This document shows positions 1,910-23,068 of a stretch of 64,000 nucleotides of DNA, one piece after another. Positions within the stretch are counted from its first letter, which is position 1. Every line of letters starts with the position of its first letter. The notes beneath the pieces were generated by a model. The model searched no databases, had not been told where the DNA came from, and saw nothing but the letters and a program-made list of their open reading frames with translations. This stretch comes from Oscillospiraceae bacterium (GTDB taxonomy: Bacteria; Bacillota; Clostridia; Oscillospirales; Oscillospiraceae), in assembly GCA_009776445.1 (NCBI GenBank), contig WRNV01000004.1, positions 427 to 64,426 on the forward strand, read 5' to 3'. The position numbers were made by a program, and so were the translations under genes.

Positions 1910-3412
1910 ATGACAAGCAGATACATGCTTCAGAGTCAAAAGAAAGAAAACTGGTCGTTTACTAAAACGCTTATGATCATACTTTGCGTAGCTGTATTAT
2001 CTTCGCTTTGCGGACCTTTCAGTTTAGCAGCGGATACAGCCTCTATTAGCGTGGGGCAAGCGTCCGCTAAACCCGGCGAAAGTATAACGATTTCAATATC
2101 TCTTGACAGCAACCCTGGAATTGCGGCATTGAATATCAAAATTGAGTATGACTCAACAAGATTGCGCATAGACAACCAAAACGCAATCGCAAGAGGGCCG
2201 GCGCTTGGATTTCTTACGTTTGTTGGGGCAAACGAAGTTACTTATGGCAACAATCCATTTTCTGCCATATGGTATGGCGCAATGAATGAGACGTCAACAG
2301 GGACACTACTGAACGTAACATTCACCGTATTGGCTAATGCGCCAAGTGGCTTGGCGTATGTTAGAGCTAACTGCGATTCAGGCGATGTATTAGACCTTTA
2401 TGAAGAACAAATCCCGATTTCAATAATGCAAGGCAGCGTGAATGTTTCGTCTGGCAGTGGAGATACTTCTGACCCCCAAAAAAACACGCCACCTACACCT
2501 CCGCCTCCAGTCGCGAATACGCCGATTGAACAATTCAGCAAGTTGATCGAAAATGCCGTTGTGCAATTTGAGGATGTGAAAACACTGCCAGACAACTTCC
2601 GAGCGTTGATTGCTGACCGTCCGGTATTTTCAATACAGGCGGATGCTACCGGAAGTCTTGCAAAAGTATCCATACCCTACACCTTAAAAGTAGGGCAAAT
2701 GCCTGAAAGTCTACTCGTTTATCATATAGATTCGTCTGATTCTTTAAGTATTGTAAAGCTGTGTCTATATGATGAAGCTGATTCGAGACTGAAGATGATC
2801 GGCTCTGTCGGAGAAAGATACATGATAGGGGAAAGCAAAATTAGCTTCACAGATGTCGCTGAAAACGCTTGGTATTATCGCGCTGTTTCATTTGGAGCTG
2901 CGCGTAAATTGTTTGAGGGAGTAGGAAACAACCTCTTTGCGCCTCAAGGGACGATGACGAGGGCAATGTTTATAACAGTACTTGCGAATTTTGACGGTGA
3001 GGATGTATCGAAGTATACAAACTCACCGTTTACTGATGTAAATATCGAATCGTGGTACGGTACAAAGGTTACGTGGGCAATGGAAAATGGTTTGCTTGAC
3101 GGCGGAATACTTGTCGGAACCGAACCCGGGACGTTTGATCCGAACGGTTTTATGACGCGGGAGCAGCTAGCCGTGTTGCTCGATAACTATATTACATATA
3201 AAGACTTGACTGTGCCGGAAGTTACAGGTAACGCTCTGGAGTTTTCCGATATTGAGCAAGCCAGTGAGTGGTCGCGTTCCTCAATTCGCAATATGCGTAC
3301 TTATGGAACCCTAGCGGGAGTGGGCAACAACCTCTTTAGTCCGAAAGGTGAAACCACCCGGGCCGAGATGGCCCAAATCCTTTACAATCTGATTAGTGTT
3401 CTGGTCAGTTAA
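1910..3412 (+). CDS. Secreted cohesin-domain protein with three C-terminal SLH domains (putative S-layer-anchored scaffold)
   Basis: RBS AGGAGG. Signal peptide. Cohesin-like ISVGQASAKPGESITISISLDSNPGIAALNIKIEYDSTRLRI. Pro-rich linker. Three SLH repeats (FTDVAENAWYY..., FTDVNIESWYG..., FSDIEQASEW...). Confidence 0.8.
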   Translation: MTSRYMLQSQKKENWSFTKTLMIILCVAVLSSLCGPFSLAADTASISVGQASAKPGESITISISLDSNPGIAALNIKIEYDSTRLRIDNQNAIARGPALGFLTFVGANEVTYGNNPFSAIWYGAMNETSTGTLLNVTFTVLANAPSGLAYVRANCDSGDVLDLYEEQIPISIMQGSVNVSSGSGDTSDPQKNTPPTPPPPVANTPIEQFSKLIENAVVQFEDVKTLPDNFRALIADRPVFSIQADATGSLAKVSIPYTLKVGQMPESLLVYHIDSSDSLSIVKLCLYDEADSRLKMIGSVGERYMIGESKISFTDVAENAWYYRAVSFGAARKLFEGVGNNLFAPQGTMTRAMFITVLANFDGEDVSKYTNSPFTDVNIESWYGTKVTWAMENGLLDGGILVGTEPGTFDPNGFMTREQLAVLLDNYITYKDLTVPEVTGNALEFSDIEQASEWSRSSIRNMRTYGTLAGVGNNLFSPKGETTRAEMAQILYNLISVLVS

Positions 3413-3508
3413 TATATGGAACAACTCAAAGCGCAATAATGGAATCAGGAGGGGTAAACGGTGTCACAAAATCTTTCAATCAAAAAAAATATGAATCAGG
3501 AGGGCAAC

Positions 3509-6500
3509 ATGAAAACAAACAGGATGTTCAAAAAATCTTTGGCGATGCTACTATCACTCATCATGATTCTCAGTATGGCGCCGCTTGCGGCAGTCGCGGA
3601 AGGCGAGTCAGAATACTTGGGGGGCGAGACTATTGCTATCGAGCCGCTTCCGGATACGATGGAGTCGCAGTCGGATTTGTCTGATACGGAAATAACCTCT
3701 GACGTGGAGATAACTCCAAGTCTTGCGGAAACAGGCTTTATTGGTATTCAAGCATCATCGTCAGGCGCGGATCCCGGCTTAGACCTTTTGCTTGCTGGGT
3801 ATAATATGTTTGGTGGAACAGAATTCTGTCGAAATAATACGATTGCGCTTGTTACTCCCGTAGGACGAGCAACGTTAGAGCAAGTAAACAATAACGTTGG
3901 ATTTATGAATTTTACAGGAGGTAACAGAGCGTCTTATCAATTTTACGCTGCGAGTAACATGGAATATTTGGCAAAAAGTAAAGGTCTGGATATTTTCGAA
4001 AGCGTCTCAAGAGGGATTGGTTATGAAAATGAAGTCAAAGTTGGGGCTGAAGTGAAATATGGGCCAGCGAAATTCACAGCCGAACAGGTTTTGAAAGCTT
4101 CCGCCAAAGCAGGATTCACACAAACTAATCAAAACACCTCTAATTACTCGTATGCTAATTCATACGAAAACTTCTTTTCTGTCATGGAAATCCGTAGAGA
4201 ACTTGGGCGAAACCACATCATTGACGTTAACAGTTTACGTACAAACAACGCGTTATATTGGAACGCGCTTTCACAAGACGCCAAAGATGCCTTATTGGGT
4301 GTAGGTGTTAGTGGTTCAAATATGGATCTGCTGTTTAGCACATATGGTACACACATTATTACTTCATATAACTTTGGGGGTCGCACGGAACATTACACAT
4401 CCATAATAAGAACAGCTTCACAGTCCGAAGAAAGCATAATGAGTCTCACAGGTAACGGTTCTTCAGGCGGAATAAACATTTTAGGGCTGCAAGCAAGCGT
4501 CGATAAAAACAAAACCACCATCGAAACGGCTGAAACTCTCGCAGCTACTGGGAGATACGAATATAGTGTCAAAAGCTATGTTTTCGGAGGCAACATGAGC
4601 TTGGGTAGCGCGCTTGACCCAAAATCAGATCCTGTGGATTTCGATAATTGGCTAAACTCAATAAGTCCAGCAGATCCCGTAAACACAACAGAAGTATTTG
4701 TTGATGATAAGCTTGAATTAGTGGGAATATGGGAATTGCTTCCTCCTGGAAACGAAGCTCGACAAGCGGAAATTCAAAAAGCCTTCCTTGATAAATACCG
4801 CAGCTATGACATGAACTTTTTCGAGAATTACATTTACAATGTGGCGAATATCATAAAAGACATGGAAAAGCCGCAGTACGACAGCAGCTACTATCCAATA
4901 TCAACTGCGGCAGAGTTGGCTGCTATCGGTTCTAACGCCACTACGCTTTCGCGAAATTACATTCTGACAAACGATATTGACTTATCAGGCAGCGCTTTTT
5001 GGACGCCCATCGGTTCACAGAGCGATCCATTTACGGGAAGATTTGAAGGGAATGGGTGTACAGTAAGTGGAGTCCAAGTTGCCCCGAATAGTCCGGCTCC
5101 AGGATTATTTGGATATAACAACGGAACTATTAGGTATCTTAGCGTAATCTACAGCTCTCGATATGGAGGCGTCGCAGGTGCCAGTAACGGAACTATCACA
5201 GATTGCTATGCGGAGTTTGCCCATAAATCACCTACACAGACTATTGAGATAACAAATACAACAACAATCATGCCGACATTCGCAACTGTCGCAAACAGCA
5301 CCGTTTTATTAGATTTTACAAACAGAACAACATCAGGTTTTAGCGATATGTCGATAATAGTTCCAAGTACGGTGCAGACAGTGATTTTTCGCGGAGTTGG
5401 GATAATATATACATCACTAAACGTTGCTATTCAAGGTAATAACACTGATGTCGTTTTTGAGAATTTCAACTTTAGAGGTACATCTTCCAGCACGGCTACA
5501 GCAGCCTTATACTTTACCGGTTCCAATCCGGGATTAATTTTACGCGGAACAAGTAACACGATAACAGGGTATGGAAGATATGCTAACAGCAATGGTTCTC
5601 GCTCTGTAGTCGAAGCTAACGGCAATTTGTATATTTGTGGAAACGCGGATTTTACCGTTGTCCATGATAATACTTATTCGTCTTCAACATCAGGTGACTT
5701 TGGGAAAAATGCTATTGGTGTTGTCGAAACATTGGACATTGCTCTTGGAGCTGCATTGACAGCTAAAGGCGGTGATGGTCGTGGAGGTTCTAATGGCAGT
5801 AATGGCAGTCCTGGAGCGGATAATTTCAATGGATGGAAAGATGGAGAAGCAGGTAAGCCTGGATACGATGGCTCCAGTGGCGGAAATGGCGGAAATGGAA
5901 TATCTACGAATAAACTCAACATATTAAATAACTCTAGTATAATTGCTACTGGTGGGGACGCTGGAAACGGGGGAGACGGAGGAACTGGAGGAAAAGGAGG
6001 AAGAGGTGGCGATGCAATGGTGGCCGGAAATGGTGGTATTGGAGGTGCTGGTGGCTATGGCGGCACAGGAGGTCGTGGAGGTAAAGGCGGCACTCCGCTA
6101 GTAGCAGAAAGCCATAACCTTAATGAACCACCTCTCCAATACTATTTAAACCTAAATGTAGGCAAAGGAGGCGTAGGCGGTTCAGGTGGTTATGGTGGTT
6201 ATGGTGGTCAAGGTGGAGCTACCCTTAATTTTTATTTGACAGTGTTAAGAAGGAATTCAGGTGGAGATGGTGGCAGAGGTGGCGCGGGTGGCGTGGGCGG
6301 ATACCATGGTCTCCTTGATATTGTCGGGGGTATAAATGAAACTACTGGTTATTACTATACAGCGGCTGGTGGTACTGGCGGTTATGGCGGAAGCGGCGGA
6401 TTCCCTAATGGAATATCATATACCTCGACCCGCGCGAGTTCTGGCGCATCCACCCTGCTTACTAATGAAGCTACCTACTTGACGAAAACACTAGGGCAAA

Positions 6501-8944
6501 AGTCAACTATAACCCTAAATACCGCTTTGTGGACGACAATACTTAATCAGTTCACCATTGGCATCGGTAGTCCTAACTTTGTGAAACTGTCGTACTATCC
6601 TGGAGACATATTTGATCCTTCGGGCTTTGTATTTATGAATAAAAACGGTTCAACAATACCGTACAGCTCAATAGATTTCAAATATGATTTTTCTAGTTTT
6701 GGGCAGACCCTTGTAACTGCAACCTACTATGTGGGTTCCGTTGCCATTGTCCGGTATATACCTGTTAAGGTAGAGCGCCCCACAGTGGATAGCATAGAAC
6801 TGTTTAAGCCCGCCAGAACACAATTCTATATAGGACAAGACTTTGATTCCCAAGGGATTGCGATAGATATAAATTATAGCGATGGTCACACAATAATTCT
6901 TACGGATGGGATTACAGTCACTCCTCCAGAAGATGTTACATCTACAGCAGGTACGAAAACAGTTTCTGTTTCACGTCCGGCATATGAGGGTACCTTTAAC
7001 CATCCAGGCATTTCGGAGTTTTCCAGTTCGTATCAAATAACCGTTGAAAATGATTTTCCGGTTAAACTTGAGGTTATTAACAAGCCTACTGTTATTCAGA
7101 TGGAAGGCAATGTATTTAACTCAACAGGTATGAGCTTTAGGGTCGAGTATATGAGCGGTGCTATAGATACAATTTACCCATCCAGCTTGACTTTTTCTCA
7201 TGGCTTGCTAAGTTCTCCAAACCCGAATTTCCCGATTACAGCTACTTATAGCACATCGGTAATTGTCAGTTGTACGTTTACAGTAGAAGTTTTGAGAGAT
7301 CCAATAATTAGACTCGAACTTAGTCCTACTCTAGTTCCAAGCTTATATGCTGGAGATATCTTTAATCCTGTAGGCTTAACTATCAGCGCTGTGCGTGAAA
7401 GTTCGCGAAAAACCGTCTTGCCGTGGAGTGATATTGACGTCCAACCGGATAGAACCTTACTGCAATCGGACAATGAACTCACCTTCATTTACTTCGATGC
7501 TATAGGTGGAAATTTTATAACTCTGCATGAGCCGATAACCGTTAGCCCTGTTGTACAAATTGGCATTGAAATTTCTCAGATGCCCACAAAGCAAAACTAT
7601 ATTGAGGGGGATTCATTTGACTCAGAAGGAATGATTGTAGACCGTGTGTTTAACAATGGAAACCGGGAAAGTGGTATTTCTGGATACGGTCTTTCCCACG
7701 GTGTATTAAGTTTAAATGATAGTTTCATCACAATAACAGATAATGGGTTTGAAGAATTTATTCCAGTGTTTGTTAGAGAAAAGCGCGTAACTACGCTTGA
7801 ATACACCCAACTACCCACTAAAACCGAATATGAAGAAGGTGAATATTTCGACCCAGCTGGAATGGTGGTTCAGGGAACATATGACAATGGGTATATAGAT
7901 TATAATGTAATGGGTTACGACTACTACCCAGATCGCCCGCTTATTGTTGAGGATACGGAAGTTATTATTTCATATGGCGGGGAGTCAACTAACATCCCTA
8001 TCACCGTTACGCCAGTCAAGCCTACTGGAGTGACGCTAAACAGAACAGCTCTCACGTTGTTCGTTGGATACTCAGGGATAATACTTGAGACAGTCCTTCC
8101 AGATAACGCGGCTGATAAAAAGGTGACGTGGAGCAGTGATGATCTTACGGTTGCGTCGGTTGATGAATTTGGTGTTGTAACTGCATTGGCGGAAGGAACG
8201 GCGATTATCACAGCAACAACTATAGAAGGAGACTTCTCCGCGAGTTGTAGGATAGACGTTGTTTTGGAAACCTCGTCGCTCATCACAGTATCCTCCGCTA
8301 CGGCTTTACGTGACAAAACAGTTACAGTAAATATTGACATTGAAAACAATCCGGGGTTTGCCGGAATGACACTCAAGGTGAGTTTCCCGAAAGAATTGAC
8401 TTTAACCCGATATGATCTTGGGGATATGGACTTGATTTTCGGATTCACTGGTCCCGATGGTGTTTTGCCAGGCGCAGCTTGCGACATATCAGACCAACTC
8501 TACTTAGTTTGGGGACGAACTTCAAACTACACGCAGGATGGAACGATTGTAACGCTGACATTCTCAATAGCGAATGACGCGCAACCGGGTGAATACCCTG
8601 TTCTTGTCACATTTGAACAGCATAACGGTCCTCGAACACCTGTTAATCTCCAAGAAACCCCTCTCGATATTTACATCATGGACGGAACGATTATCGCATT
8701 GCGGTGCATTCTCGGTAACGTAACCGATAGTGGTGAAGTTGGGCCGGCAGACTTGGTAAGACTAGCGCGATGGATAGCCGGTCATCAGGGTGTGTATATC
8801 AACGAATTTGCCGCTGACATCACAGGGCGCGGCGAAATTGGGCCTGCCGATCTCGTTAGGCTTGCGCGATGGATAGCTGGACATTTTGGCGATATGACTC
8901 TTGAAGAATTACGAACAAGACCAGATACAGGAGGTAGTCAATAG
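3509..8944 (+). CDS. Giant secreted multidomain protein: MACPF - GLUG - Gly-rich solenoid-like region - 6 Big_3-like - Big_2 - cohesin - dockerin
   Basis: Start chosen at ATG 3509 (CAGGAGGGCAACATG; MKTNRMFKKSLAMLLSL signal peptide). The ORF is open from GTG 3461. Domain motifs are listed under the sub-features and findings. Confidence 0.8.
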   Translation: MKTNRMFKKSLAMLLSLIMILSMAPLAAVAEGESEYLGGETIAIEPLPDTMESQSDLSDTEITSDVEITPSLAETGFIGIQASSSGADPGLDLLLAGYNMFGGTEFCRNNTIALVTPVGRATLEQVNNNVGFMNFTGGNRASYQFYAASNMEYLAKSKGLDIFESVSRGIGYENEVKVGAEVKYGPAKFTAEQVLKASAKAGFTQTNQNTSNYSYANSYENFFSVMEIRRELGRNHIIDVNSLRTNNALYWNALSQDAKDALLGVGVSGSNMDLLFSTYGTHIITSYNFGGRTEHYTSIIRTASQSEESIMSLTGNGSSGGINILGLQASVDKNKTTIETAETLAATGRYEYSVKSYVFGGNMSLGSALDPKSDPVDFDNWLNSISPADPVNTTEVFVDDKLELVGIWELLPPGNEARQAEIQKAFLDKYRSYDMNFFENYIYNVANIIKDMEKPQYDSSYYPISTAAELAAIGSNATTLSRNYILTNDIDLSGSAFWTPIGSQSDPFTGRFEGNGCTVSGVQVAPNSPAPGLFGYNNGTIRYLSVIYSSRYGGVAGASNGTITDCYAEFAHKSPTQTIEITNTTTIMPTFATVANSTVLLDFTNRTTSGFSDMSIIVPSTVQTVIFRGVGIIYTSLNVAIQGNNTDVVFENFNFRGTSSSTATAALYFTGSNPGLILRGTSNTITGYGRYANSNGSRSVVEANGNLYICGNADFTVVHDNTYSSSTSGDFGKNAIGVVETLDIALGAALTAKGGDGRGGSNGSNGSPGADNFNGWKDGEAGKPGYDGSSGGNGGNGISTNKLNILNNSSIIATGGDAGNGGDGGTGGKGGRGGDAMVAGNGGIGGAGGYGGTGGRGGKGGTPLVAESHNLNEPPLQYYLNLNVGKGGVGGSGGYGGYGGQGGATLNFYLTVLRRNSGGDGGRGGAGGVGGYHGLLDIVGGINETTGYYYTAAGGTGGYGGSGGFPNGISYTSTRASSGASTLLTNEATYLTKTLGQKSTITLNTALWTTILNQFTIGIGSPNFVKLSYYPGDIFDPSGFVFMNKNGSTIPYSSIDFKYDFSSFGQTLVTATYYVGSVAIVRYIPVKVERPTVDSIELFKPARTQFYIGQDFDSQGIAIDINYSDGHTIILTDGITVTPPEDVTSTAGTKTVSVSRPAYEGTFNHPGISEFSSSYQITVENDFPVKLEVINKPTVIQMEGNVFNSTGMSFRVEYMSGAIDTIYPSSLTFSHGLLSSPNPNFPITATYSTSVIVSCTFTVEVLRDPIIRLELSPTLVPSLYAGDIFNPVGLTISAVRESSRKTVLPWSDIDVQPDRTLLQSDNELTFIYFDAIGGNFITLHEPITVSPVVQIGIEISQMPTKQNYIEGDSFDSEGMIVDRVFNNGNRESGISGYGLSHGVLSLNDSFITITDNGFEEFIPVFVREKRVTTLEYTQLPTKTEYEEGEYFDPAGMVVQGTYDNGYIDYNVMGYDYYPDRPLIVEDTEVIISYGGESTNIPITVTPVKPTGVTLNRTALTLFVGYSGIILETVLPDNAADKKVTWSSDDLTVASVDEFGVVTALAEGTAIITATTIEGDFSASCRIDVVLETSSLITVSSATALRDKTVTVNIDIENNPGFAGMTLKVSFPKELTLTRYDLGDMDLIFGFTGPDGVLPGAACDISDQLYLVWGRTSNYTQDGTIVTLTFSIANDAQPGEYPVLVTFEQHNGPRTPVNLQETPLDIYIMDGTIIALRCILGNVTDSGEVGPADLVRLARWIAGHQGVYINEFAADITGRGEIGPADLVRLARWIAGHFGDMTLEELRTRPDTGGSQ
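3770..4750 (+). other. MACPF (membrane-attack-complex/perforin) domain region
   Basis: Signature YGTHIITSYNFGG (nt 4343-4381) fits (Y/W)-G-(T/S)-H-x7-G-G. There is an upstream AGYNMFGG, a second FGGN, and a C-terminal W..SI...P....LELVGIWELLP tail typical of the family. Confidence 0.65.
8030..8262 (+). other. Big_2 (bacterial Ig-like group 2) module
   Basis: VTLNRTALTLFVGYSGIILETVLPDNAADKKVTWSSDDLTVASVDEFGVVTALAEGTAIITATT. Confidence 0.7.
8281..8698 (+). other. Cohesin-like module inside the MACPF protein
   Basis: ITVSSATALRDKTVTVNIDIENNPGFAGMTLKVSFPKELTL resembles the cohesins of the two flanking genes (NPGFAGMALKISYP in the downstream gene, NPGIAALNIKIEYD in the upstream gene). Confidence 0.55.
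8710..8892 (+). other. Dockerin-like duplicated segment (degenerate Ca-binding loops)
   Basis: Two 22-residue-type segments, GNVTDSGEVGPADLVRLARWIAGH and ADITGRGEIGPADLVRLARWIAGH. Confidence 0.55.
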
Positions 8945-9795
8945 TGGAGATTAACAAGCTATTTAGGGCTCGTAGGATGCTTGCATCAGTGCTTACGTGT
9001 TTACTTGTATTAACTCTATACCCTACTATTATGTCCGTTTACGCCGCTGGTGCGATGCTCACTTTGCAAGTCGATTCAGGGCTGTACGCTCCAGGTGAGA
9101 CTTTCACTGCCGACATTGTTATGAGCGATAATCCAGGCTTCGCAGGGATGGCACTAAAAATCAGCTACCCTAGAGGTATTGAGGCGACCCACATTCGCCC
9201 GATTGGCTCAAATCCTCAAGATATGGGGGAAATGATGGATTTGATAAGTGGGCTGACGTTACCCGATGGCTGGGTTTCCGGAAGCGGAGCTTTACCCGCG
9301 CCTATTCCCGATAAATTTTACTTGGTATGGGGGCGTTCATTCAATTATACAGCTTCCGCTACATTATTTGAAGTTACTTTTCAAGTGACACAAGATGCTA
9401 TTGTTGGCGCAAATGTGATAGATATTGCCTTTGAAGGCGCTCAAGGGCCGCGCGCTCCAGTTAATCTTGCGGAGCAGCCGCTTACTATTGGCTTGACTCC
9501 CGGAACGGTTACGATCCACAGGCCTAGTAGTTTTAAAATTTACGATTCAAACTTCCAGCCCGCGCCAAACAACATAACGCTGTCCGTAGGTAGTACCGCG
9601 CAATTTTACGCGACGTTAGACGGAGCATTGACTATAAGTGGTATCAAATGGGTTATCGCGGATTCGCGACTTGCTACTGTCAACACTTATGGGTTAGTCA
9701 GCGTCAATAAAAACAAATATACAGGGCAATTGGTATTGATGCTCTATAGCTCCGAGAATAAGTTACTGGACAGTATCACGTTGAGGATAGTTTAG
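8944..9795 (+). CDS. Secreted cohesin-like plus Big_2 protein
   Basis: The GTG start shares one nucleotide (8944) with the upstream stop codon, and AGGAGG lies 9 nt upstream. Signal peptide. Cohesin-like LQVDSGLYAPGETFTADIVMSDNPGFAGMALKISYP. C-terminal Big_2-like ITLSVGSTAQFYATL...ATVNTYGLVSV. Confidence 0.7.
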   Translation: MEINKLFRARRMLASVLTCLLVLTLYPTIMSVYAAGAMLTLQVDSGLYAPGETFTADIVMSDNPGFAGMALKISYPRGIEATHIRPIGSNPQDMGEMMDLISGLTLPDGWVSGSGALPAPIPDKFYLVWGRSFNYTASATLFEVTFQVTQDAIVGANVIDIAFEGAQGPRAPVNLAEQPLTIGLTPGTVTIHRPSSFKIYDSNFQPAPNNITLSVGSTAQFYATLDGALTISGIKWVIADSRLATVNTYGLVSVNKNKYTGQLVLMLYSSENKLLDSITLRIV

Positions 9796-9884
9796 CAGTA
9801 GTTTATCGACTGAGAAACATCTTTGGGATATGAGAAGGAGGAAGGTGGAACGATAGAGGCATAGAAATAGCTTTCAAAACGTAA

Positions 9885-9929
9885 GGGCGTGAACTGTAGA
9901 CCTGTAACTGTCACGCTCTTTTTGTTTTT
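9885..9929 (+). terminator. Putative intrinsic terminator of the cohesin operon
   Basis: GGGCGTGA...TCACGCTC stem followed by TTTTTGTTTTT. Confidence 0.5.
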
Positions 9930-9991
9930 CTAAATGTTAAGTTATCTGCCAAAAAGAACGAAAATATGTATATATAGTATGGAGGAACGAT

Positions 9992-11002
9992 ATGAAAACA
10001 AACATTAAAACAACATTACTATTGCTTGCGGCACTCGTGATTATCGGCTCGCTTCTTTGCGCGCTTGTCGGGTGCGCCCAAAACGAAGTAGTTGATATCC
10101 ACAACCCCGAAGACCTGGTTCCTCCCATATATGAAGGCGACATAGCGGATTTGGAGCAGGAAATGATCCCGTTATCGTCCTCGCCTCCTATGTTCACCAT
10201 ATCAATGCCAACAGCCCCGGGAACCAACACAAAGAAAAACAACAAAGCGGAAATCGACTATTCCAATACAAAAGATGGATATATCATGGTTAGGTTTCTG
10301 CAAAGCACCAGCAAACAATTGCGTGTGATTATCAAGGGACCAAGCGCGGTACAGTACACGTACACCTTGAAAACTAACGGGGACTACGAAGTATACCCAC
10401 TTTCTGACGGCAACGGGAGCTACATGGCTACTGTTTACGAGCAAATAGAAGGTACAAGGTACTCAACAGCAAACTCCGCTTCGTTCGACGTGACCCTAAA
10501 TGACGAATTCGCGCCGTTCATACGCCCAAACCAATACGTAAACTATAAACCCGACAGCAAAACAGTCGCGAAGGCTGCCGAACTCATAGGGAACGTCGAT
10601 GATTTACCCGGAAAGATTTCCGCGATTTACAATTTTGTCATTAAAAACTTGACATACGACAGAGAACTAGCCGCGACCGTCCAAAGCGGCTATCTGCCCG
10701 ACGTAGACGTCATCTTGGAAAAGGGCAAAGGCATATGTTTCGACTACGCGGCTGTTATGACGTCGATGCTACGCAGCCAGGGAATCCCAACAAAACTTGT
10801 GGTGGGATATGCCGGTCAAGCCTACCATGCGTGGATAAACGTATATTCCGACGAAACAGGCTGGATAAACAATGTTATATTTTTCGATGGCAAAACGTGG
10901 AAGCTTATGGATCCCACATTCGCGTCCACAGGTAAACAAAGCTCGACCGTAATGAACTACATAGGCGACGGTACTAACTATACATCGAAATTCCTCTATT
11001 GA
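9992..11002 (+). CDS. Transglutaminase-like (papain-fold) lipoprotein
   Basis: Lipobox LLCALVGC. Transglutaminase core GKGICFDYAAVMTSMLRSQGIPTKLVVGY...YHAWINVY...WKLMDPT (Cys-His-Asp). Confidence 0.8.
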   Translation: MKTNIKTTLLLLAALVIIGSLLCALVGCAQNEVVDIHNPEDLVPPIYEGDIADLEQEMIPLSSSPPMFTISMPTAPGTNTKKNNKAEIDYSNTKDGYIMVRFLQSTSKQLRVIIKGPSAVQYTYTLKTNGDYEVYPLSDGNGSYMATVYEQIEGTRYSTANSASFDVTLNDEFAPFIRPNQYVNYKPDSKTVAKAAELIGNVDDLPGKISAIYNFVIKNLTYDRELAATVQSGYLPDVDVILEKGKGICFDYAAVMTSMLRSQGIPTKLVVGYAGQAYHAWINVYSDETGWINNVIFFDGKTWKLMDPTFASTGKQSSTVMNYIGDGTNYTSKFLY

Positions 11003-11074
11003 CGCATAGCACAGTATCTATACTCGCGGTCGAAAGTATATCTTGCGGTATCTCTATTGAAATGAGGTCGCGCG

Positions 11075-12121
11075 ATGAAAAATAAAACATTGACTAGTTC
11101 ATATCTGTCCGCGCTATGTTCTGAACTCGCGATGCTGCTCGACGCCGGACTCACTGCTATTGATAGCGTTCAGATATTGCAAGACGACGAGCCGGGTAAA
11201 GAAGGCAAAGCGATCATGCAAATCCTGATTGACACGCTTGAAATGGGCGAGCCATTGTCCGCCGCGCTCAAAGGCTCAGGCCTTTTCCCCCGTTATATGG
11301 CGCATATGGTGGAAATCGGCGAAAAAACAGGTCGCTTAGTACAGACGCTGGGCGCTCTTTCCGAATACTACGAAAGGCAAGTCAGACTATCGTCTACCAT
11401 CAGGAGTTCCGTTCTGTACCCTGCGGTGCTGCTCGCACTGATGGTAGTTGTGGTATTGATCCTTATTGTACAGGTCTTGCCAATATTCAACGATGTGTTT
11501 AACCGGCTCGGCGCGCAGATGTCCCCCTTGGCCGACAGCTTAATGCGGTTCGGTGGGTGGCTTGGAAACGCCTCAGCGGTTATCGCGGTTATTTTCGGCG
11601 CGATATTTATATTGGCTATTATCGTTTGGGCTGTGCCAAGCATTCGCAAAAGTCTCACAAAAGGGTTTTCCGATAGGTGGGGCGATAGAGGCGTTTTTGG
11701 CAAAATAGCGTCGTCCCGATTCGTATTTGCCATGACGCTTGGGATGGCAAGCGGGCTGGACACGGCTGAAGCCATCGATATCGCGGCCGCTGTCAGCGGC
11801 GGTTCAAAAGCCATAGACAATAAGCACAAGCGGTGTTCGGGCTTGCTGAGCTCTGGCAGCACGCTTTCCGAAGCGTTGTGCGGCGCTGGCATACTCTCGC
11901 CACAAGATGGCAAGATGCTGTCTATCGGGAGCCGTAGCGGCAAGGCGGACGCCGCAATGGCTGAGATCGCGCGTAGAAGCGACCTTGATGTACAAGACAG
12001 AGTGGGCCGGCTCGTCGGTAAGATCGAGCCCACGCTTGTTATAATATCGTCAGCAATAGTTGGCGTTATCTTGCTTTCGGTCATGTTGCCTCTAATGGGT
12101 ATTATGACCGCTATAGGTTGA
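11075..12121 (+). CDS. Type II secretion / type IV pilus platform protein (GspF/PilC family)
   Basis: 348 aa. Duplicated GspF-type helical domains with three TM segments (LSSTIRSSVLYPAVLLALMVVVVLILIV..., C-terminal TLVIISSAIVGVILLSVMLPLMGIM). Confidence 0.85.
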   Translation: MKNKTLTSSYLSALCSELAMLLDAGLTAIDSVQILQDDEPGKEGKAIMQILIDTLEMGEPLSAALKGSGLFPRYMAHMVEIGEKTGRLVQTLGALSEYYERQVRLSSTIRSSVLYPAVLLALMVVVVLILIVQVLPIFNDVFNRLGAQMSPLADSLMRFGGWLGNASAVIAVIFGAIFILAIIVWAVPSIRKSLTKGFSDRWGDRGVFGKIASSRFVFAMTLGMASGLDTAEAIDIAAAVSGGSKAIDNKHKRCSGLLSSGSTLSEALCGAGILSPQDGKMLSIGSRSGKADAAMAEIARRSDLDVQDRVGRLVGKIEPTLVIISSAIVGVILLSVMLPLMGIMTAIG

Positions 12122-12180
12122 TTGATTTATTGGTTGATTGGTTGATTGGTTGATTGGTTGGTTGGATGGTTGATTGATTA
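12118..12180. repeat. 8-bp tandem repeat (TTGATTGG)n, about 8 units with 3 perfect
   Basis: ttgattga tttattgg ttgattgg ttgattgg ttgattgg ttggttgg atggttga ttgatta. Fills the whole gap between the GspF stop and the next start. Confidence 0.9.
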
Positions 12181-12182
12181 AT

Positions 12183-12512
12183 ATGCGAAAAAGGATATAC
12201 AAAGCAAACGCTTGGGATTTTCTTCGTGGCGCGATAGTCCCCATCCTCTTCACAGTCGCCGTGATGCTTATGATCGTCTATGGTTTGTCGCAGACGGAGC
12301 GGTCAAGCAGGGTTGAAGGCTTGCGGATACTTGAGGACAGCATACGCCGCGCCACAGTTATGTGCTACGCTGTCGAGGGGCGATATCCTGATACTATTAA
12401 ATACCTCGAAGAGAATTATGGGATACGTATAGATTGGTCTAAATATGCCGTACACTACAGCATTTTCGCCTCAAATCTCTTCCCTGACATAACGGTAATA
12501 GAGCTAGTATAG
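12183..12512 (+). CDS. Small membrane-anchored protein of the pilus-like operon
   Basis: Single N-terminal TM (GAIVPILFTVAVMLMIVYGL). The ATG at 12183 is preferred over the TTG at 12174. No clear SD. Confidence 0.5.
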   Translation: MRKRIYKANAWDFLRGAIVPILFTVAVMLMIVYGLSQTERSSRVEGLRILEDSIRRATVMCYAVEGRYPDTIKYLEENYGIRIDWSKYAVHYSIFASNLFPDITVIELV

Positions 12513-12549
12513 CTTAAGTTGTGGGTAGATACAACTTTGGGAGTTCCAT

Positions 12550-13065
12550 ATGGAATATAAAAACCGCCGACGTCGTATTGATACTATTTTCGTTATGATA
12601 ATATTCTGTGTATTCGCCGTATCTGTGCTTATGGTGTTGATGCTTGGCGCGAAGATTTATGAAAATGTAACTGCAATGTCGCGTGACGGATACGCTGACC
12701 ATTCGATACTTTCTTATATTTGGACTAAAATAAAAAACAGCGACGACGCTGGGCGTATCTATATCGGGGAATTCTCCGGATTGCCCGCTCTTTTTATTGA
12801 GGAGCAATATGGTCAGATACAGTATATTACAACTATTTATGAGTATAATGGCTGGATCTACGAGCTGTTTTGCGAAATTGGCCTTGACTTTCTCCCGGAG
12901 GACGGCGTACAGATAGCGGAGCATGGCAGCTTAACGTTTGATATGTATGAAAACGGGCTGATAAAGGTATCTTCCTACGCAAAAGACCTGCTAATATTCC
13001 CACGCGGCAACGTAACCGGCGCTAACGCTCGCGATGCTTCCATCGGAGGGGGGCCGTCAGGATGA
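12550..13065 (+). CDS. Membrane-anchored protein (DUF4860-like) of the pilus-like operon
   Basis: RBS GGGAG. N-terminal basic stretch plus TM (IDTIFVMIIFCVFAVSVLMVLML). The family assignment is from memory only. Confidence 0.5.
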   Translation: MEYKNRRRRIDTIFVMIIFCVFAVSVLMVLMLGAKIYENVTAMSRDGYADHSILSYIWTKIKNSDDAGRIYIGEFSGLPALFIEEQYGQIQYITTIYEYNGWIYELFCEIGLDFLPEDGVQIAEHGSLTFDMYENGLIKVSSYAKDLLIFPRGNVTGANARDASIGGGPSG

Positions 13066-13502
13066 ACCAGCGTTCGAGATCCACTCTATTTTTGATAGAA
13101 CAGTTGATCGTCGTCGCTGTGTTCGCGATTTGCGGGGCAGCTTGCGTCAGTATCCTAACTTCTGCATATCTTACGGCAAGGGACTCCAAGGACATAGTAA
13201 ACGCGATTTCGGTCGCCGAAAGTGGCGCAGAAAGTTACAAGGCGACTGGCGGCGATATGATCAAAGCAGTAGAAATGCTGGGCGGCGGCGCTATCAGCAA
13301 CTCAGACGGCGCATATGAAGCGATCATATACTATGACAGGCAGTGGCATATCTGCGCAATAGATGAAGCGTTCTATGCTTTCCGCATAATTCGCAATGGG
13401 CCTGAAAATCGGCCCACGTCTTTGATAACAGACAAAATCCTTGTCGAAAAGCTCACTGGCGAGACCTTAATAACCTTCAATGTCGCCGCTAACCCACCGT
13501 AA
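13062..13502 (+). CDS. Pseudopilin-like protein (non-canonical prepilin N-terminus)
   Basis: STLFLIEQLIVVAVFAICGAA resembles the class III signal (x-TL-IE plus hydrophobic helix) but lacks the Gly at -1. Overlaps the upstream gene by 4 nt. Confidence 0.55.
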   Translation: MNQRSRSTLFLIEQLIVVAVFAICGAACVSILTSAYLTARDSKDIVNAISVAESGAESYKATGGDMIKAVEMLGGGAISNSDGAYEAIIYYDRQWHICAIDEAFYAFRIIRNGPENRPTSLITDKILVEKLTGETLITFNVAANPP

Positions 13503-13543
13503 TTATACTCGCGGTCTGAACAGTAGCATAGGGGTGATCGTCT

Positions 13544-14020
13544 ATGAAAAATGGTGGGATTGGCGTCGGCAGCGCTTCGCTTGTTCTTGTTTTCGCGGTA
13601 CTGTGCCTGACGGTGTTTTCCCTCATCACGTTCGTGGTTGCCGGAAACGACAAAGCTCTGACTGACGCCGAAGCGAAACTGGTGGCCGGTTACTACGAAG
13701 CGGATGCCTTTGCCGAAAACATCGTCGCGGAAATCGTTGGAGACGACGATATACCTGACAGTGTCGGCGGCATTGACATAACGTATGAGCAGGATTTTTC
13801 GACAGGCGAAAAAATAGCGAGTTTTGTATGCCCAATCTCCAGCCGGAAGGAACTGTACGTTAGCGTAGCTCTAAGCGGGGAATCATACGACATACTCAGT
13901 TGGCGGATGTTTGATATTGGGCAGTGGGCCGTCGACGACAAGCTGAACGTGTGGCAAGGACCGGACGAATCCGAGACCGGAGACCCAACGGATGTTTTAT
14001 CAAAACTGAAAGTGGATTGA
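13544..14020 (+). CDS. Membrane-anchored protein of the pilus-like operon
   Basis: N-terminal TM GSASLVLVFAVLCLTVFSLITFVVAG. In operon context. Confidence 0.5.
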   Translation: MKNGGIGVGSASLVLVFAVLCLTVFSLITFVVAGNDKALTDAEAKLVAGYYEADAFAENIVAEIVGDDDIPDSVGGIDITYEQDFSTGEKIASFVCPISSRKELYVSVALSGESYDILSWRMFDIGQWAVDDKLNVWQGPDESETGDPTDVLSKLKVD

Positions 14021-14042
14021 GTTAATGAGAAAGGATAGGCAT

Positions 14043-15098
14043 ATGGTGCTTGATTGGCTAAAAAAGGCGGTATATGAAGGCGCTTCAGACATTTTCATTG
14101 GAGCGGGCCGCAGCGTCGCGTTTAAAAAGAATGGCATAATAAGTTCCCAAGACAGTGGGTTCATCTCCCCCGCCGAAGCGGAAGAACTGATAACTGAACT
14201 GTATACTTTGGGGAAAAGACCGACAAAAAGATATATAGAAAGCGGGGACGACGACTTCCCTGTTACCGTCCCCGGCCTCGCCCGCTTCAGGGTGAATACG
14301 TACAAACAGCGTAGCACGATGGCTGCTATTATACGGGTCGTTATGTTCAACATCCCTGATTATAAGGCGCTGCTCATCCCCGACGAAGTTATGGCAGTGG
14401 CAGGAGAGAATAACGGACTGGTGCTTGTTACAGGACCTGCCGGTGGCGGGAAATCGACGACTCTCGCTTGCGTCATCGACGCGATTAACAAATCCCGGAA
14501 TTGCCATATCATAACTTTGGAAGACCCCATCGAATTTCTTCACCGGGACAACCAGAGCCTTGTCAGCCAACGCGAGGTGTCCACTGACACCGAATCGTAC
14601 AAGGTCGCGCTACGAGCTTGCCTAAGGCAGGCGCCGGATATTATCCTGCTTGGTGAAATGCGCGACTATGATACGATAAGGACGGCGATAACAGCCGCTG
14701 AAACAGGACATCTCGTTATTTCGACGCTACACACAGTTGGCGCTTCGAATACAATTGACCGCGTCATCGACATATTCCCGTCGGAGCAGCAACAGCAGAT
14801 ACGCGTCCAGCTCTCTATGGTACTGCGCATGGTGGTTTCACAGCGACTACTGCCAAACATAAACGGCGAATCCATCCCAGCGTTTGAGATCATGCGGGTC
14901 AATAACGCGATCAGTAATATTATCCGTGAAGCAAAAACGCATCAGATCGACAGCGTTATCCAGACTTCGGCGCAAGACGGTATGATTGGTATGGACGCGT
15001 ACATACTTAGGCTGTACCGCAAGGGCGATATCACCGCTGAAACAGCCTTGAGAAACGCTTCAAACCCGGACTTAATGAGTCGGCAGCTTCGGAACTGA
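14043..15098 (+). CDS. PilT/ComGA-sized secretion ATPase (GspE/PilT superfamily)
   Basis: MVLDWLKKAVYEGASDIFI N-terminus. Walker A GPAGGGKSTT. LGEMRD Asp box. TGHLVISTLHT His box. An alternative ATG lies at 14025. Confidence 0.85.
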   Translation: MVLDWLKKAVYEGASDIFIGAGRSVAFKKNGIISSQDSGFISPAEAEELITELYTLGKRPTKRYIESGDDDFPVTVPGLARFRVNTYKQRSTMAAIIRVVMFNIPDYKALLIPDEVMAVAGENNGLVLVTGPAGGGKSTTLACVIDAINKSRNCHIITLEDPIEFLHRDNQSLVSQREVSTDTESYKVALRACLRQAPDIILLGEMRDYDTIRTAITAAETGHLVISTLHTVGASNTIDRVIDIFPSEQQQQIRVQLSMVLRMVVSQRLLPNINGESIPAFEIMRVNNAISNIIREAKTHQIDSVIQTSAQDGMIGMDAYILRLYRKGDITAETALRNASNPDLMSRQLRN

Positions 15099-15100
15099 CG

Positions 15101-15136
15101 AATGGCTAGCGGCTGTATATCAAGCCGCTAGCCATT
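15101..15136. terminator. Bidirectional hairpin between convergent genes
   Basis: AATGGCTAGCGGC - loop - GCCGCTAGCCATT, a perfect 13-bp stem. Confidence 0.6.
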
Positions 15137-15142
15137 GTGGCT

Positions 15143-18100
15143 TCATTCGCCGGCCCATACTTCGGAGCCGGCGCCATTTGGCCTTGAGTAATCGTGGGCG
15201 TGATATGCTTCCATTATGTCATAAAACGCCCAATGCGACGACGCGACGTCAGAAAAACGCTCCTGTTCCAGATGAGTGTCAATGTACACTTTGTCCGCCA
15301 AACGATCAAGCGCCCTGTTCATGATCGTTACGACTTCCGCGCGGCTGATCTGTTGATCAGGTTTGAAACTCCCGTCGTTGTACCCGATAATCCATCCGAA
15401 CCGGATCGCTACGTCGATGTGCTCAAACGCCCAGTGCTCCACGGATACGTCGTCGAACGAACCATCCGGCAAAGTATCCGGCGCGTATTTCGCGAAACGC
15501 GTCAGAACAGCGACAAATTCCGCGCGGCTGATGCTGTCTTCAGGATGGAAGCGCCCGTCTGGGTATCCTTCGACTATGCCTATTGAAGCTAGCGTGTGTA
15601 CCGCCCTTTCGTACCACGCGCCTACCAGAACGTCTGGAAACCGCTTCGATATCTCCACGTTTTGTTTGCTAAGCAGGTTGAAGAACATCTGCGCAACCTC
15701 CGCCCGTTTCATATCCCTATCCGGCGCAAAGATACCCCCGCCGACCCCGCGTATATATTGTATATGCTCATCGACTGTCAGCAAGTTTAATGCGCTGCTT
15801 GTTTCTCTGGTTTCTTTACCGTTGCCGACATCATTTTTTCCAGGATCATATATCCTGCCCTGGTTTTTGTTTTGGTCTTCCGGCGGTTCTATGGTCGACG
15901 TATCCGCTTTATAAACAGCAATAACTTGTTTGCTGGGGCTTACGAAGAACTCTCCAAACGGTTTTATTTCAACTTCAACCGTCCCCTCCGTCCCCACGCT
16001 GCTAAGGCCTAATGTCCAAGCGTTGCTGGCGGCTTCGTAGCCAGGGGATAGCGCGCTTTTCTCCGCCGTCCCTGTCATATCGCGGATCGTGACGTCATAA
16101 ACAGTCAAGCCCGATATCATCACCGGCGCGCTAGAGTCTTGCTCGACAAATGAGATCGCGATTCCCTCAGAGTCAGCCTTTCCGGGTATTCCTCCTGTCT
16201 GTTCGGCAGTAAAACTTATTGGCTTGAGCGCCTGGAGTTTGATAAATCGATCCTCGTCATAGTATTCGAACTGTATGTCTGATGTGCCGGTAGTGGCGTC
16301 GTCGCCATCATAACTGCCGCTGTACTCCCAGCGGTAGTATTCGTTTGCCGGGCCTTCGCCAGCGCCGCCGATCCAGCGTATCGCCGTTTGGCTACCTTGG
16401 GCTGTGATCGAGCCGCCGATTATTGACAAACGTCCCGAATTCCCGAGATCGACGCCAAATTCGCCTTTTGCTGCCAGCTCGCCACTGCCCTCAATTATGA
16501 TATTACTGTCTGATTTCAGCCCGTTTGTTCTGCCTTCGAAGACGCTGTTGCCATAGGATATGACCGTCGTGTCGCCTACAAGCGTCAGCGCCGTAGACGC
16601 GTTCGTAGTCCAAAAGAATTCATACAATGTCAGCTTTCCAGGTTCCCCGTCCCATAATGTCCCCTGCCAGTCGTTGGAGGGATCGAACGGAGCGTCTAGA
16701 TTAGTGCCAGACAGTGTTCCGCTTTCATCGATGTCATAATACAGTTTTCCTTCCGCCGCGTTAAAAACCAGACCGCAATCTCCGCGCACGTCGGCATTGA
16801 GAGCAGTAAATTCAGGTGTTAATATTACGTCACAATCCGGCATGTCAAACTCCGCCGGGTTTTCTTCATTGCCGCCCGAAATCACAACGCCACCCGCCAC
16901 GTTCCATTGATTGAATTCATAGCCGACGTTGGCAACAGCCGTCACGTTGATAGGCGTCCCCGCCAAATAATCGCCCGCAACCGTGCCGGACGTCCCGCCG
17001 CCTTCGCTGGAACCAATAATCAGTTTGTAGAGTATTGCTTTGTACACATTCACGGGTACGCTACTTGGTTGCAAAACGTAGAAGTCTCCAAAATGCCCTA
17101 TTTCGACATTGACCGTCCCCTCCGCGACCACGCCCTCAAGCGCTACCATCCATGTGTCGCCGTATCCCGTAAGCGCGCCAACGGGCGCGACCGTCACTGC
17201 TCCAGTGTCATCTGTTATATCAATATTGTCAATATATAAGCCGTCTACTGGTTGGTCGAAAACCAGCGCGATGCCCGCCGTATCGACCATACCTGGGACG
17301 CCGCCTTTTTCAACCGCACTAAAACTGATTGGTTTTAGCGCCTGGAACATTATAAACTGATCCTTGACAAAGTACTTAAATGGATCCTCCGGGCTGTACC
17401 CCGAGTCCGAATCGCCGCCGTCATAGCCGCCGCCGCCGTCGTAATCAATGCTCCACGACCATCTGTAGTACTGGGACGTCGTACCCGGACCGACTGAATC
17501 GTCAGGCCCTTCGAAGTTGACTGCCTTGCCTCCCTGGGCAATAAACGCGCCGCCGTTGATCGTGAGATCCATTATACCAATATCGATTCCATAGCAGTAT
17601 GTTCCCGAACCAGTATCGTTCCTCCCTTTGGCTGTCAGCGTCCCTGAACCGTTGACGGTCAGATTGTAGCTGTTTGACCTGATCCCGCATGAATAGCCTG
17701 ACTTGGATGTTGATTCAAACGTGCTGTCCCCGTCAAGAATGATCTCTACATCCGCTCCTACGACTGTCAGAGAGGTTCGTGCGGACGTTATCCATGAAAA
17801 TCCTCTGAGCGTAAGCTTTCCAGGTTCCCCCGACCAGTATCCGTCAAATATCCCAACGGCATATGGCTCCGCCAGATTGATGTCGGAAAGTCCGCCCGTT
17901 TGATCGACGTCAATATACATCATGCCGCTGGATGCGTCGAAAATAAGCCCATATTCATTAGTAACCGTTACTGGAGTCAGCAGGAAAAAACCGGCCGTCA
18001 CGCCACTGATGTATTGGATCCCGCTACCCAGCATTGGGTCGAAATACCAGTACAGCGTGTTGCTACCGATCGAGTAATTCAAGTCATGCGTATTTGGAGT

Positions 18101-19654: not shown

Positions 19655-19756
19655 ACTTATCGCTCCCAATTATAGTAATATATCTACATTATACATCATC
19701 ACTCGCCGTATTTCTACATATTTATCATCATTATTTTATGTAGCCAAGGTGTATAC

Positions 19757-19890
19757 CTGTTCAGAGGGTATCCAAAAACTCGCAATGGTTACAGACTCCG
19801 CACACAAGTTTGAGCAATTGTACAAGTTTCCGCCGCAGGACCAGTGCGTTGTCTGTAACCAGCCTGTGTTTTTTGATACCCCCTGAACAC
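19757..19890 (+). repeat. 134-nt nested-hairpin element, copy A (CTGTTCAG...CTGAACAC termini)
   Basis: About 89% identical to 36454-36587. About 21-nt terminal inverted repeats. Inner stems GGTTACAGAC/GTCTGTAACC and CGCAC/GTGCG. Confidence 0.85.
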
Positions 19891-19896
19891 AAGCCG

Positions 19897-20163
19897 TCAT
19901 CTCCCGCTCTCGACAAACCAGCGTGGCTGCCCTGTGTCGCTCCAGGTATCCTCGAAAAACAGAAGCCTCGTTTGCCCCATTATTTTCACGGTGTACCGCA
20001 CTCCCATGCTGCCTGCGGCCGACGCGGCGCGACGCGCGTCGACAACCCTGTCGATCTCAAAAACCCGGCCGTCTTCCCATGTGATTTCGATCGGCCTCAT
20101 ATCCCCGTCCGCGCTGAAACTGACGCGCGCCTCAACATAAACCCTTCGCGGATGCATCTCCAT
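19897..20163 (-). CDS. 88-aa protein translationally coupled to the Y-family polymerase
   Basis: RBS GAAAGG lies upstream of the ATG, which sits 13 nt after the polymerase stop. No recognisable motif. Confidence 0.55.
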   Translation of the reverse strand: MEMHPRRVYVEARVSFSADGDMRPIEITWEDGRVFEIDRVVDARRAASAAGSMGVRYTVKIMGQTRLLFFEDTWSDTGQPRWFVESGR

Positions 20164-20176
20164 CTTGCCTTTCTAT

Positions 20177-21409: not shown

Positions 21410-21464
21410 GTCTCCGTTGCGGGCTCCTCCTTCAACACGGGACTTCCCCTCCACTACTCTCACT

Positions 21465-21492
21465 ATTATATCACTAGTTTTTAAGATTTCAA
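21465..21492 (-). promoter_or_regulatory. Promoter TTGAAA-16-TATAAT for the polymerase operon
   Basis: On the - strand: TTGAAA (21487-21492) and TATAAT (21465-21470). Overlapped by the direct repeat ACTAGTTTTTAAGATTT. Confidence 0.5.
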
Positions 21493-21535
21493 TATGTTAA
21501 AATAACTAATTTTTAAGATTTTTTGTGTTTTATAC

Positions 21536-21564
21536 TTGCATTGCGTTATTAAATGGGTTATTAT
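21536..21564 (+). promoter_or_regulatory. Promoter TTGCAT-17-TATTAT for the S24 repressor/SRAP operon
   Basis: TTGCAT at 21536-21541 and TATTAT at 21559-21564. A second copy of ACTAATTTTTAAGATTT lies just upstream. Confidence 0.5.
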
Positions 21565-21594
21565 ATGGGTATACACGTATTTGGGGGTAACTAT

Positions 21595-22293: not shown

Positions 22294-22339
22294 AGCTAGC
22301 TTTGCCCTCAAATAGCAACAAATCATAGGAGGCGCTGAT

Positions 22340-22960: not shown

Positions 22961-23050
22961 CCACTTATGGATTATCAGAGTAAATAAAAACAAGAAAATC
23001 CCCTCGTCTAATCCCGTATTCTGACTTCTGACTCCTGACTTCTGACTCCT

Positions 23051-23068
23051 TGCGCTCCGCAGAGCGCA
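23051..23068. terminator. Short hairpin between convergent genes
   Basis: TGCGCTC-CGCA-GAGCGCA abutting the stop codon of the - strand gene. The T-tract is weak. Confidence 0.3.

Follow-up and report, generated by a model that had tools for sequence, protein, structure and literature searches.

A MACPF domain at the head of a giant, possibly wall-tethered cohesin-dockerin protein of an Oscillospiraceae bacterium

Work on perforin-like (MACPF) proteins has covered animals, apicomplexans, fungi, Bacteroidales, Chlamydia and a few proteobacteria; in Gram-positive bacteria, it is the related cholesterol-dependent cytolysins (CDCs) that are well known. Cohesin and dockerin modules, for their part, are otherwise famous for organising cellulases. 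What, then, does a perforin-like domain do at the head of an 1,811-residue protein that ends in a cohesin-like module and a dockerin, in a member of the Oscillospiraceae? The question is raised by a gene at 3509..8944 on the + strand of a 64,000-nucleotide stretch of contig WRNV01000004.1 (assembly GCA_009776445.1), referred to below as the window. An earlier reading of the letters alone (hereafter, the sequence-only reading) had proposed that this gene encodes a MACPF signature. Here, we report that the N-terminal module of the protein almost certainly has the MACPF fold, and we weigh what such a module could achieve on a cell wall.

The MACPF domain covers residues 87-440 of the protein (3767..4828, + strand); it had been placed correctly at 3770-4750, and its true extent is somewhat larger. 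Pfam MACPF (PF01823) matches the protein with 45.2 bits (E 1.6e-11) for a gathering score of 21.5. The signature YGTHIITSYNFGG, present in frame as quoted by the sequence-only reading (4343..4381, + strand, within the open reading frame 3509-8944), lies at the start of the third central strand and agrees with (Y/W)-G-(T/S)-H-(F/Y)-x6-G-G except for an Ile where Phe or Tyr is expected. The other short strings quoted from the domain are also in frame: AGYNMFGG (3794-3817) and, towards the end of the domain (4580..4744, + strand, from the alignment and the translation), the second Gly-Gly pair in VFGGN (4580-4594), the W-x2-S motif in WLNSISP (4649-4669) and the G of GIWELLP followed by IWELLP (4727-4744).

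The first alternative to be considered is that YGTH...GG arose by coincidence in a repetitive surface protein that has no MACPF domain at all. Two results, taken alone, would suit it: a single-sequence phmmer search of the PDB with the window domain gave nothing significant (perforin, E 0.66), and an AlphaFold2 (AF2) model built from a three-sequence alignment reached a pLDDT of 33. Against it, translating the 64-kb window in six frames yields the pattern [YW]G[TS]H.{7}GG a single time and 200 shuffles never do, and the Pfam score stands above its cut-off. What decides the matter is the comparison with relatives of the domain.

These relatives are rare and were hard to find. Word-index searches, with the single domain or with a 36-sequence profile, gave two truncated fragments only, and the family emerged when 1.84 billion representative proteins were scanned exhaustively with HMMER: 80 relatives at E <= 1e-3, 42 of them at E <= 1e-10 and 11 at E <= 1e-30. 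Most are proteins of 1,000-2,600 amino acids with the domain near the N-terminus. Most also come from metagenome contigs, the sources named by NCBI being two Oscillospiraceae metagenome-assembled genomes (MAGs). We aligned the window domain with 35 relatives (alignment A2, mean column identity 27%). Each of the 36 aligned sequences matches Pfam MACPF individually, and the invariant columns comprise G194, H196 and G204 of the signature together with G274, G275, W295, W322 and P326; both Gly-Gly pairs are among them. Across the family, 67 of 81 members keep the strict signature motif, the residue that follows its His being I, V, L, F or M.

When the A2 profile was compared with the PDB, all 25 sequences retrieved at E <= 1e-3 belonged to solved MACPF proteins. 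The matches include GNIP1Aa (1.3e-13), Plu-MACPF (2.8e-13), Bth-MACPF (6.4e-10), C8 alpha (5.7e-8) and perforin (3.4e-7), as well as Mpf2Ba1, pleurotolysin B, C6 and C9, the solved MACPF proteins ranging from 1e-13 to 1e-5. With all 36 sequences, which were needed for a usable model, AF2 gave a structure of the domain with a pLDDT of 84.1 and a pTM of 0.81. The predicted fold has four long central strands (domain residues 47-62, 135-151, 196-215 and 264-273) with two helix-rich regions between them, a layout that corresponds to the bent central four-stranded sheet flanked by the two helical clusters, TMH1 and TMH2, of solved MACPF proteins. Foldseek retrieved 30 PDB structures with this model at E <= 1e-3, all of them MACPF proteins; the top ten have a probability of 1.00, and the bacterial leaders are Mpf2Ba1 (5.5e-10), Plu-MACPF (2qp2, 7.3e-10), GNIP1Aa (6fbm, 4.9e-9) and Bth-MACPF (3kk7, 7.8e-8). 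Profile and structure comparisons were the check proposed along with the original claim, and all of them lead to MACPF proteins. Because the Pfam match, the individual matches of the relatives, the profile comparison with the PDB and the AF2 model with its Foldseek search all agree, we assign the domain to the MACPF family, and the idea of a chance motif, refuted by the Pfam match, the profile comparison, the model and the Foldseek search, keeps next to no probability.

To which MACPF proteins is the domain closest? Plu-MACPF of Photorhabdus luminescens (2qp2), GNIP1Aa of Chromobacterium piscinae (6fbm) and Mpf2Ba1 (8b6u/8b6v) are the best matches by both profile and fold, and the window domain belongs to the same branch. 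All share the signature, an LF(K/S)AS...F strand in TMH1 and the second Gly-Gly pair, and the W-x2-S and GIWEL closing motifs of the window domain align with those of Plu-MACPF and GNIP1Aa in the profile alignments. The likeness is nevertheless distant, with about 14-15% identity in the structural alignment, and it is confined to the domain. Indeed, these three, all of Gram-negative origin, are soluble proteins of about 450-540 amino acids, each with one receptor-binding domain at its C-terminus, and unlike the window protein they have no cohesin, dockerin or Ig-like stalk.

Other known systems share one part or another with the window protein. Bth-MACPF (3kk7) and the BSAP toxins are likewise MACPF proteins of gut bacteria; BSAPs are used against competing bacteria (PMC12853789), and most Bacteroides MACPF proteins carry lipoprotein signal peptides (PMC2954219). 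The Bacteroidales proteins are, however, far smaller (541 amino acids for Bth-MACPF, 549 positions for the BSAP5a model), and they lack the giant size, the putative cohesin-dockerin tether and the Gram-positive background of the window protein. Membership of the BSAP group was tried and rejected: NCBIfam NF053771 (BSAP5a_fam) gives 16.7 bits for a cut-off of 500 bits, and the shared MACPF core alone aligns. The CDCs of Gram-positive bacteria belong to the same structural superfamily as the window domain and use the same two-hairpin insertion mechanism as MACPF proteins (PMC2954219). The window protein was rejected as a CDC as well. As the sequence-only reading had noted, the undecapeptide ECTGLAWEWWR is absent, here even with up to four substitutions allowed; no CDC family appeared in the Pfam scan, and no CDC structure stands among the Foldseek matches listed.

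The remainder of the protein is what makes it unusual. Its reading frame is open from GTG 3461 or ATG 3509 to position 8944. An AGGAGG precedes ATG 3509, and AATCAGGAGGG is present twice in 3440-3511, before GTG 3461 and before ATG 3509, which gives two possible ribosome-binding sites and starts. When the two starts were compared, only the ATG 3509 product was found to begin with a signal peptide. This 1,811-residue product is recorded exactly in JGI/ENA, as a singleton cluster, and the products of the alternative starts 3461 and 3491 have no database record. The putative Sec-type signal peptide MKTNRMFKKSLAMLLSLIMILSMAPLAAVAEG (3509..3604, + strand), read from the translation, has a basic N-terminus, a hydrophobic core and an AVA motif. 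It is followed, in order, by the MACPF domain, a GLUG-like/Gly-rich region, four Big_3 repeats, a Big_2 repeat, a cohesin and a dockerin. The GLUG-like module and the Gly-rich (GGxGG) region after it occupy 4829..6748 (+ strand); for residues 441-1080, Pfam gives only a sub-threshold Glug match (E 0.035) and the PDB only low-complexity Gly-linker artefacts. The GLUG-like module directly follows the MACPF domain in at least 20 homologues. The Ig-like stalk (6749..8248, + strand) is well defined, with Big_3 at 67.6 bits in four stretches and Big_2, at 8024-8248, at 51.2 bits.

The C-terminal end comprises the protein's own cohesin-like module (8267..8707, + strand) and a dockerin (8696..8896, + strand). 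The former was recognised through a Pfam Cohesin match below cut-off, a PDB match to a cohesin of ScaE (2zf9, E 0.027) and a local cohesin hidden Markov model (HMM). The latter contains a duplicated G-x-x-G-P-A-D-L-V-R-L-A-R-W-I-A-G-H motif and resembles solved type-I dockerins (6kg9, E 1.3e-4; CelS 2mte, E 1.3e-3). The local HMMs for cohesin, dockerin and SLH (S-layer homology) modules were seeded on the modules of the window, three of them in the case of cohesin, and were checked against Pfam calls in other loci, where the cohesin model recovers Pfam-confirmed cohesins. Precomputed Pfam annotations also agree with the local models for the homologues P0006, P0008, P0010 and P0003. The window protein and P0006 share 65% identity in the cohesin-dockerin module and about 35% in the MACPF domain, which suggests that the anchor is conserved while the head diverges.

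What could such a dockerin bind? The gene immediately upstream (1910..3412, + strand) is a putative cell-wall anchor gene: its product has a signal peptide, one cohesin (residues 46-178, nucleotides ~2045-2443; Pfam Cohesin 41.1 bits for a cut-off of 24.1) and three SLH repeats (residues ~309-494, nucleotides ~2834-3391; 89.3 bits in three stretches), which is the layout expected of a wall-anchoring scaffoldin. NCBI records it as MCL2151515.1, 'S-layer homology domain-containing protein [Oscillospiraceae bacterium]'. The sequence-only reading had described the MACPF protein itself as linked to an SLH system; the 1,811-residue protein contains no SLH repeats, and the link is an indirect one, through this neighbour. 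On the other side, the start of a further + strand gene (8944..9795) overlaps the MACPF stop codon. Its product, judged from the translation and the local HMM, has a signal peptide, a cohesin-like module and a Big_2-like tail, without an anchor; the local cohesin HMM gives 1e-31, and the Pfam matches are weak (Big_2 0.0035, Cohesin 0.051).

The logic of these parts is that of cellulosome-type systems such as those of Clostridium thermocellum and Ruminococcus flavefaciens, in which SLH anchoring scaffoldins carry cohesins and adaptor scaffoldins combine cohesins with a C-terminal dockerin. Indeed, the window has a cohesin-SLH anchor, a partner that ends in cohesin and dockerin, and further cohesin proteins nearby, and the MACPF protein's own cohesin resembles R. 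flavefaciens ScaE weakly. It differs from cellulosomes in the degenerate calcium loops of the dockerin and in its cargo, a perforin-like domain and not a carbohydrate-active enzyme; no glycoside hydrolase was found among the window genes scanned.

The arrangement recurs in the family. With the local HMMs, dockerins were found in 27 of 81 members and cohesins in 22, and when only the members of at least 1,400 amino acids are counted, which are likely complete (n=27), these become 24 with a dockerin and 20 with both modules. A cohesin gene adjoins the MACPF gene in five of seven distinct loci, namely the window, L003, L007, L008 and L009. In L003, a gene encoding a cohesin and three SLH repeats lies directly upstream of the P0006 gene, its product being 32% identical to the window anchor; in L009, a cohesin and SLH gene lies directly downstream of the MACPF gene, and L007 and L008 have cohesin genes in that same position. 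Other members may be attached in other ways. In P0045, the polypeptide itself has SLH repeats, placed after a cohesin-dockerin-cohesin series, and P0004 ends in a hydrophobic segment and KRRA, resembling a membrane anchor or a sortase signal. Because dockerins are widespread and because of the SLH repeats of P0045 and the membrane anchor of P0004, surface attachment, by alternative anchors, looks like the common theme of the family.

Altogether, we propose as the best reading, and one we hold with some reserve, that the protein is a MACPF warhead which cohesin-dockerin binding holds to the wall and which acts on contact. The 1,811-residue protein would be exported by Sec. Its C-terminal dockerin would then plug into a cohesin, the likeliest partner being the SLH-anchored protein encoded immediately upstream, and the MACPF protein would thereby be fixed non-covalently to the cell wall. 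The Ig-like stalk (four Big_3 and one Big_2) and the GLUG-like/Gly-rich region may keep the MACPF head far from the producer's own membrane, and the protein's own cohesin, together with the secreted cohesin protein encoded downstream, may let more dockerin proteins or copies assemble, raising the local density of MACPF heads. Upon contact with a foreign lipid membrane, such as the outer membrane of another microbe or a eukaryotic cell, the MACPF domains would oligomerise, and the helical clusters TMH1 and TMH2 would refold into amphipathic beta-hairpins and insert as a pore. These parts do not deserve equal confidence: wall tethering by cohesin and dockerin is probable, and real pore formation on contact is a tentative proposal to which we give slightly less than an even chance.

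The evidence that bears most directly on pore formation comes from the two membrane-insertion regions. In the model, TMH1 (domain residues 63-134; 3953..4168, + strand) lies between strands 47-62 and 135-151, and TMH2 (domain residues 216-263; 4412..4555, + strand) between strands 196-215 and 264-273. The family hydrophobicity profile shows a period-2 alternation over about 25 columns in TMH1 and about 22 columns in TMH2, reached in neither case by any of 1000 shuffles, and there is no period-2 signal in this profile for the flanking core strands or the C-terminal helix. In the window protein, TMH1 contains two amphipathic stretches of about 16-20 residues (4013-4060 and 4064-4111) with Gly-Pro between them; they are the strongest two period-2 segments of its own domain, at a strength that shuffles often equal. 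The sequence-only reading had proposed two Ser/Thr/Asn-rich stretches as the hairpin regions. The second, LTGNGSSGGINILGLQASVDKNKTT (4445-4519), does fall in TMH2. The first, QTNQNTSNYSYANSY (4121-4165), is not the TMH1 hairpin: this Asn/Ser-rich stretch adjoins it at the end of TMH1, and the amphipathic hairpin corresponds mainly to domain residues ~83-115 (4013-4111). Because the hairpin-type alternation is kept across a family that is only about 27% identical, it argues for selection on membrane insertion, though it is no proof of it.

The same pattern has to be set against a second explanation, namely that the MACPF domain is non-lytic and forms the recognition or adhesion head of a giant surface adhesin. 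The head would bind a partner cell or particle by its membrane or by a glycan, and the cohesin and dockerin modules would serve display alone. The remainder of the protein does resemble an adhesin stalk (Big_3, Big_2 and the Gly-rich region), and giant SLH surface proteins are plentiful elsewhere in the window. A review of MACPF proteins (PMC5483515) moreover acknowledges roles other than pore formation, and the function of Bth-MACPF was given as unknown (PMC2954219). What an adhesin head does not readily account for is the hairpin-type alternation in both TMH regions at such low identity, hard to explain without selection for insertion, and the retention of the invariant Gly-Gly and His of the signature. 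We thus regard a purely adhesive head as unlikely, though it is the most serious competitor of the contact-acting pore-former.

Several observations weigh against a wall-tethered, contact-acting pore-former. Plu-MACPF, among the closest solved relatives, was reportedly non-lytic in the assays that accompanied its structure, and we know of no MACPF protein that assembles into rings while carrying a tethered tail of 1,400 residues. More generally, several bacterial MACPF proteins are without demonstrated lytic activity, and the function of Bth-MACPF was described as unknown (PMC2954219). The period-2 pattern does not reach significance when the window sequence is taken by itself (amphipathicity z of 1.6 and 0.4). 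No immunity gene or target could be identified. On the side of the anchor, the protein's own cohesin falls below the Pfam cut-off (E 0.013), and no cohesin gene adjoins the MACPF gene in L002 or in L004-L006 (two loci). Finally, Pfam Dockerin_1 does not match the dockerin of the window protein, and its calcium loops (8714-8890) are degenerate, reading N-V-T-D-S-G and D-I-T-G-R-G where D-x-N-x-D-G is expected; calcium-dependent docking is therefore uncertain. In P0006 and P0008, precomputed Pfam annotation places Dockerin_1 at the same position as the window dockerin, and the close homologue P0006 has a canonical second calcium loop, D-I-N-G-D-G.

The degenerate loops also feed a third explanation, that of a released toxin. 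Here, the dockerin would only store the protein at the wall, and the MACPF head or the whole protein would be shed by undocking or proteolysis and act at a distance, much as the secreted BSAPs or the insecticidal Mpf/GNIP toxins do. Degenerate loops could mean a weak, reversible docking, the nearest relatives among solved structures are toxins of 450-540 amino acids that are secreted in soluble form, and a gene of transglutaminase/cysteine-protease fold (9992-11002) lies 1 kb downstream. On the other hand, neither a cleavage site nor a dedicated protease is evident, the GLUG-like module always directly follows the MACPF domain, and the latter remains joined throughout to an extended stalk and an anchor module, with a dockerin in nearly all of the long members counted above and SLH repeats or a membrane anchor in others. 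A shed toxin thus seems improbable to us, and a head that stays on the wall and acts on contact is preferred.

The boldest version of the contact-acting proposal is that gut Oscillospiraceae have repurposed cellulosome-type hardware as a contact-dependent membrane-attack device, with a perforin-like pore-former displayed at the surface, of which many heads, clustered by the protein's own cohesin and by the extra secreted cohesin protein, would form a ring on the membrane of a neighbour. We consider this speculative and rather doubtful. If true, Bacillota would gain their first described MACPF weapon, and a non-enzymatic 'toxin-osome' would be on record for the first time. Whatever its activity, the MACPF tip on very large, apparently wall-tethered Oscillospiraceae proteins defines a distinct and rare family, of about 80 clusters among the 1.84 billion representatives. 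Should these proteins form pores, they would reveal a new contact-dependent antagonism, or an interaction with host or prey, in gut Clostridia, as well as a new use of cohesin-dockerin assembly; should they not, the debate on MACPF functions other than lysis would gain a clear example. Either way, they raise the mechanistic question of how a tethered MACPF domain oligomerises.

Is such a protein without precedent? A survey of 2010 found bacterial MACPF proteins in Chlamydiae, Bacteroides, proteobacteria, actinomycetes and cyanobacteria, Firmicutes not being listed (PMC2954219), and our full-text literature search found no relevant paper that joins MACPF with dockerin, cohesin, cellulosome, Bacillota or termite bacteria. 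The architecture, which the sequence-only reading had called new, is thus not described in the literature searched. The databases are another matter, as automated NCBI annotation already recognises the domain: MCL2087503.1 is named 'MAC/perforin domain-containing protein [Oscillospiraceae bacterium]'. This homologue is encoded by the Oscillospiraceae MAG Th196P3bin43, the only match among 185,579 reference genomes; its source is the P3 section of the hindgut of Termes hospes, a termite that feeds on humus (PMC7024585). The MACPF gene of this MAG adjoins spoIIP. Several neighbouring proteins of the window are themselves identical to NCBI entries for 'MAG: Oscillospiraceae bacterium', and the attribution of the window protein to a Gram-positive bacterium, made from the letters alone, is thus reasonable.

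The surroundings of the family's MACPF genes deserve a few words. They often lie just downstream of mobile-element genes (L001, 7539-8324; L007, 1911-6408; L003, 1134-1961). In L001 and L007, a small resolvase/invertase gene is found directly upstream of the MACPF gene; in L007 it is joined by a large serine recombinase, a Mob_Pre relaxase and TnpW, and L003 has a KilA-N gene. The MACPF cassette may be horizontally mobile or switchable. In the window, the divergent intergenic region between a 191-residue tyrosine-recombinase open reading frame (1098-1673, - strand) and the cohesin-SLH gene contains two recombinase-core-like sites, ATGTAACATA-N8-TATGTTACAT, at 1704-1776; they are inverted, 17 bp apart, and together form a 73-nt palindrome. 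Control of the operon may run through this palindrome, either as an operator or as a site of recombination or phase variation. A second copy, which could act as partner in an invertible switch, was looked for and is absent from the 64-kb window, and promoter and terminator scans gave counts no higher than the shuffle level. The G+C content is 43-46% at 2001-10000, which holds the cohesin-SLH, MACPF and cohesin genes, versus 51-53% at 14001-24000; since other surface-protein genes of the window share a low G+C content, the difference does not clearly point to a foreign origin.

Beyond the operon, NCBI calls the product of the transglutaminase-core gene at 9992-11002 a 'lasso peptide biosynthesis protein'. 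Within 9992-15098 there is also a type IV pilus-like set, with a type II secretion system (T2SS) F protein, a DUF4860 protein and a PilT/PilU-type ATPase. Three more giant surface proteins are encoded on the - strand, at 15143-19669, 26932-31068 and 31159-34839. Two of them combine SLH with Flg_new/InlB-B repeats; the other has DUF11, Big_6 and a C-terminal dockerin, which makes it a candidate second client for the local cohesins.

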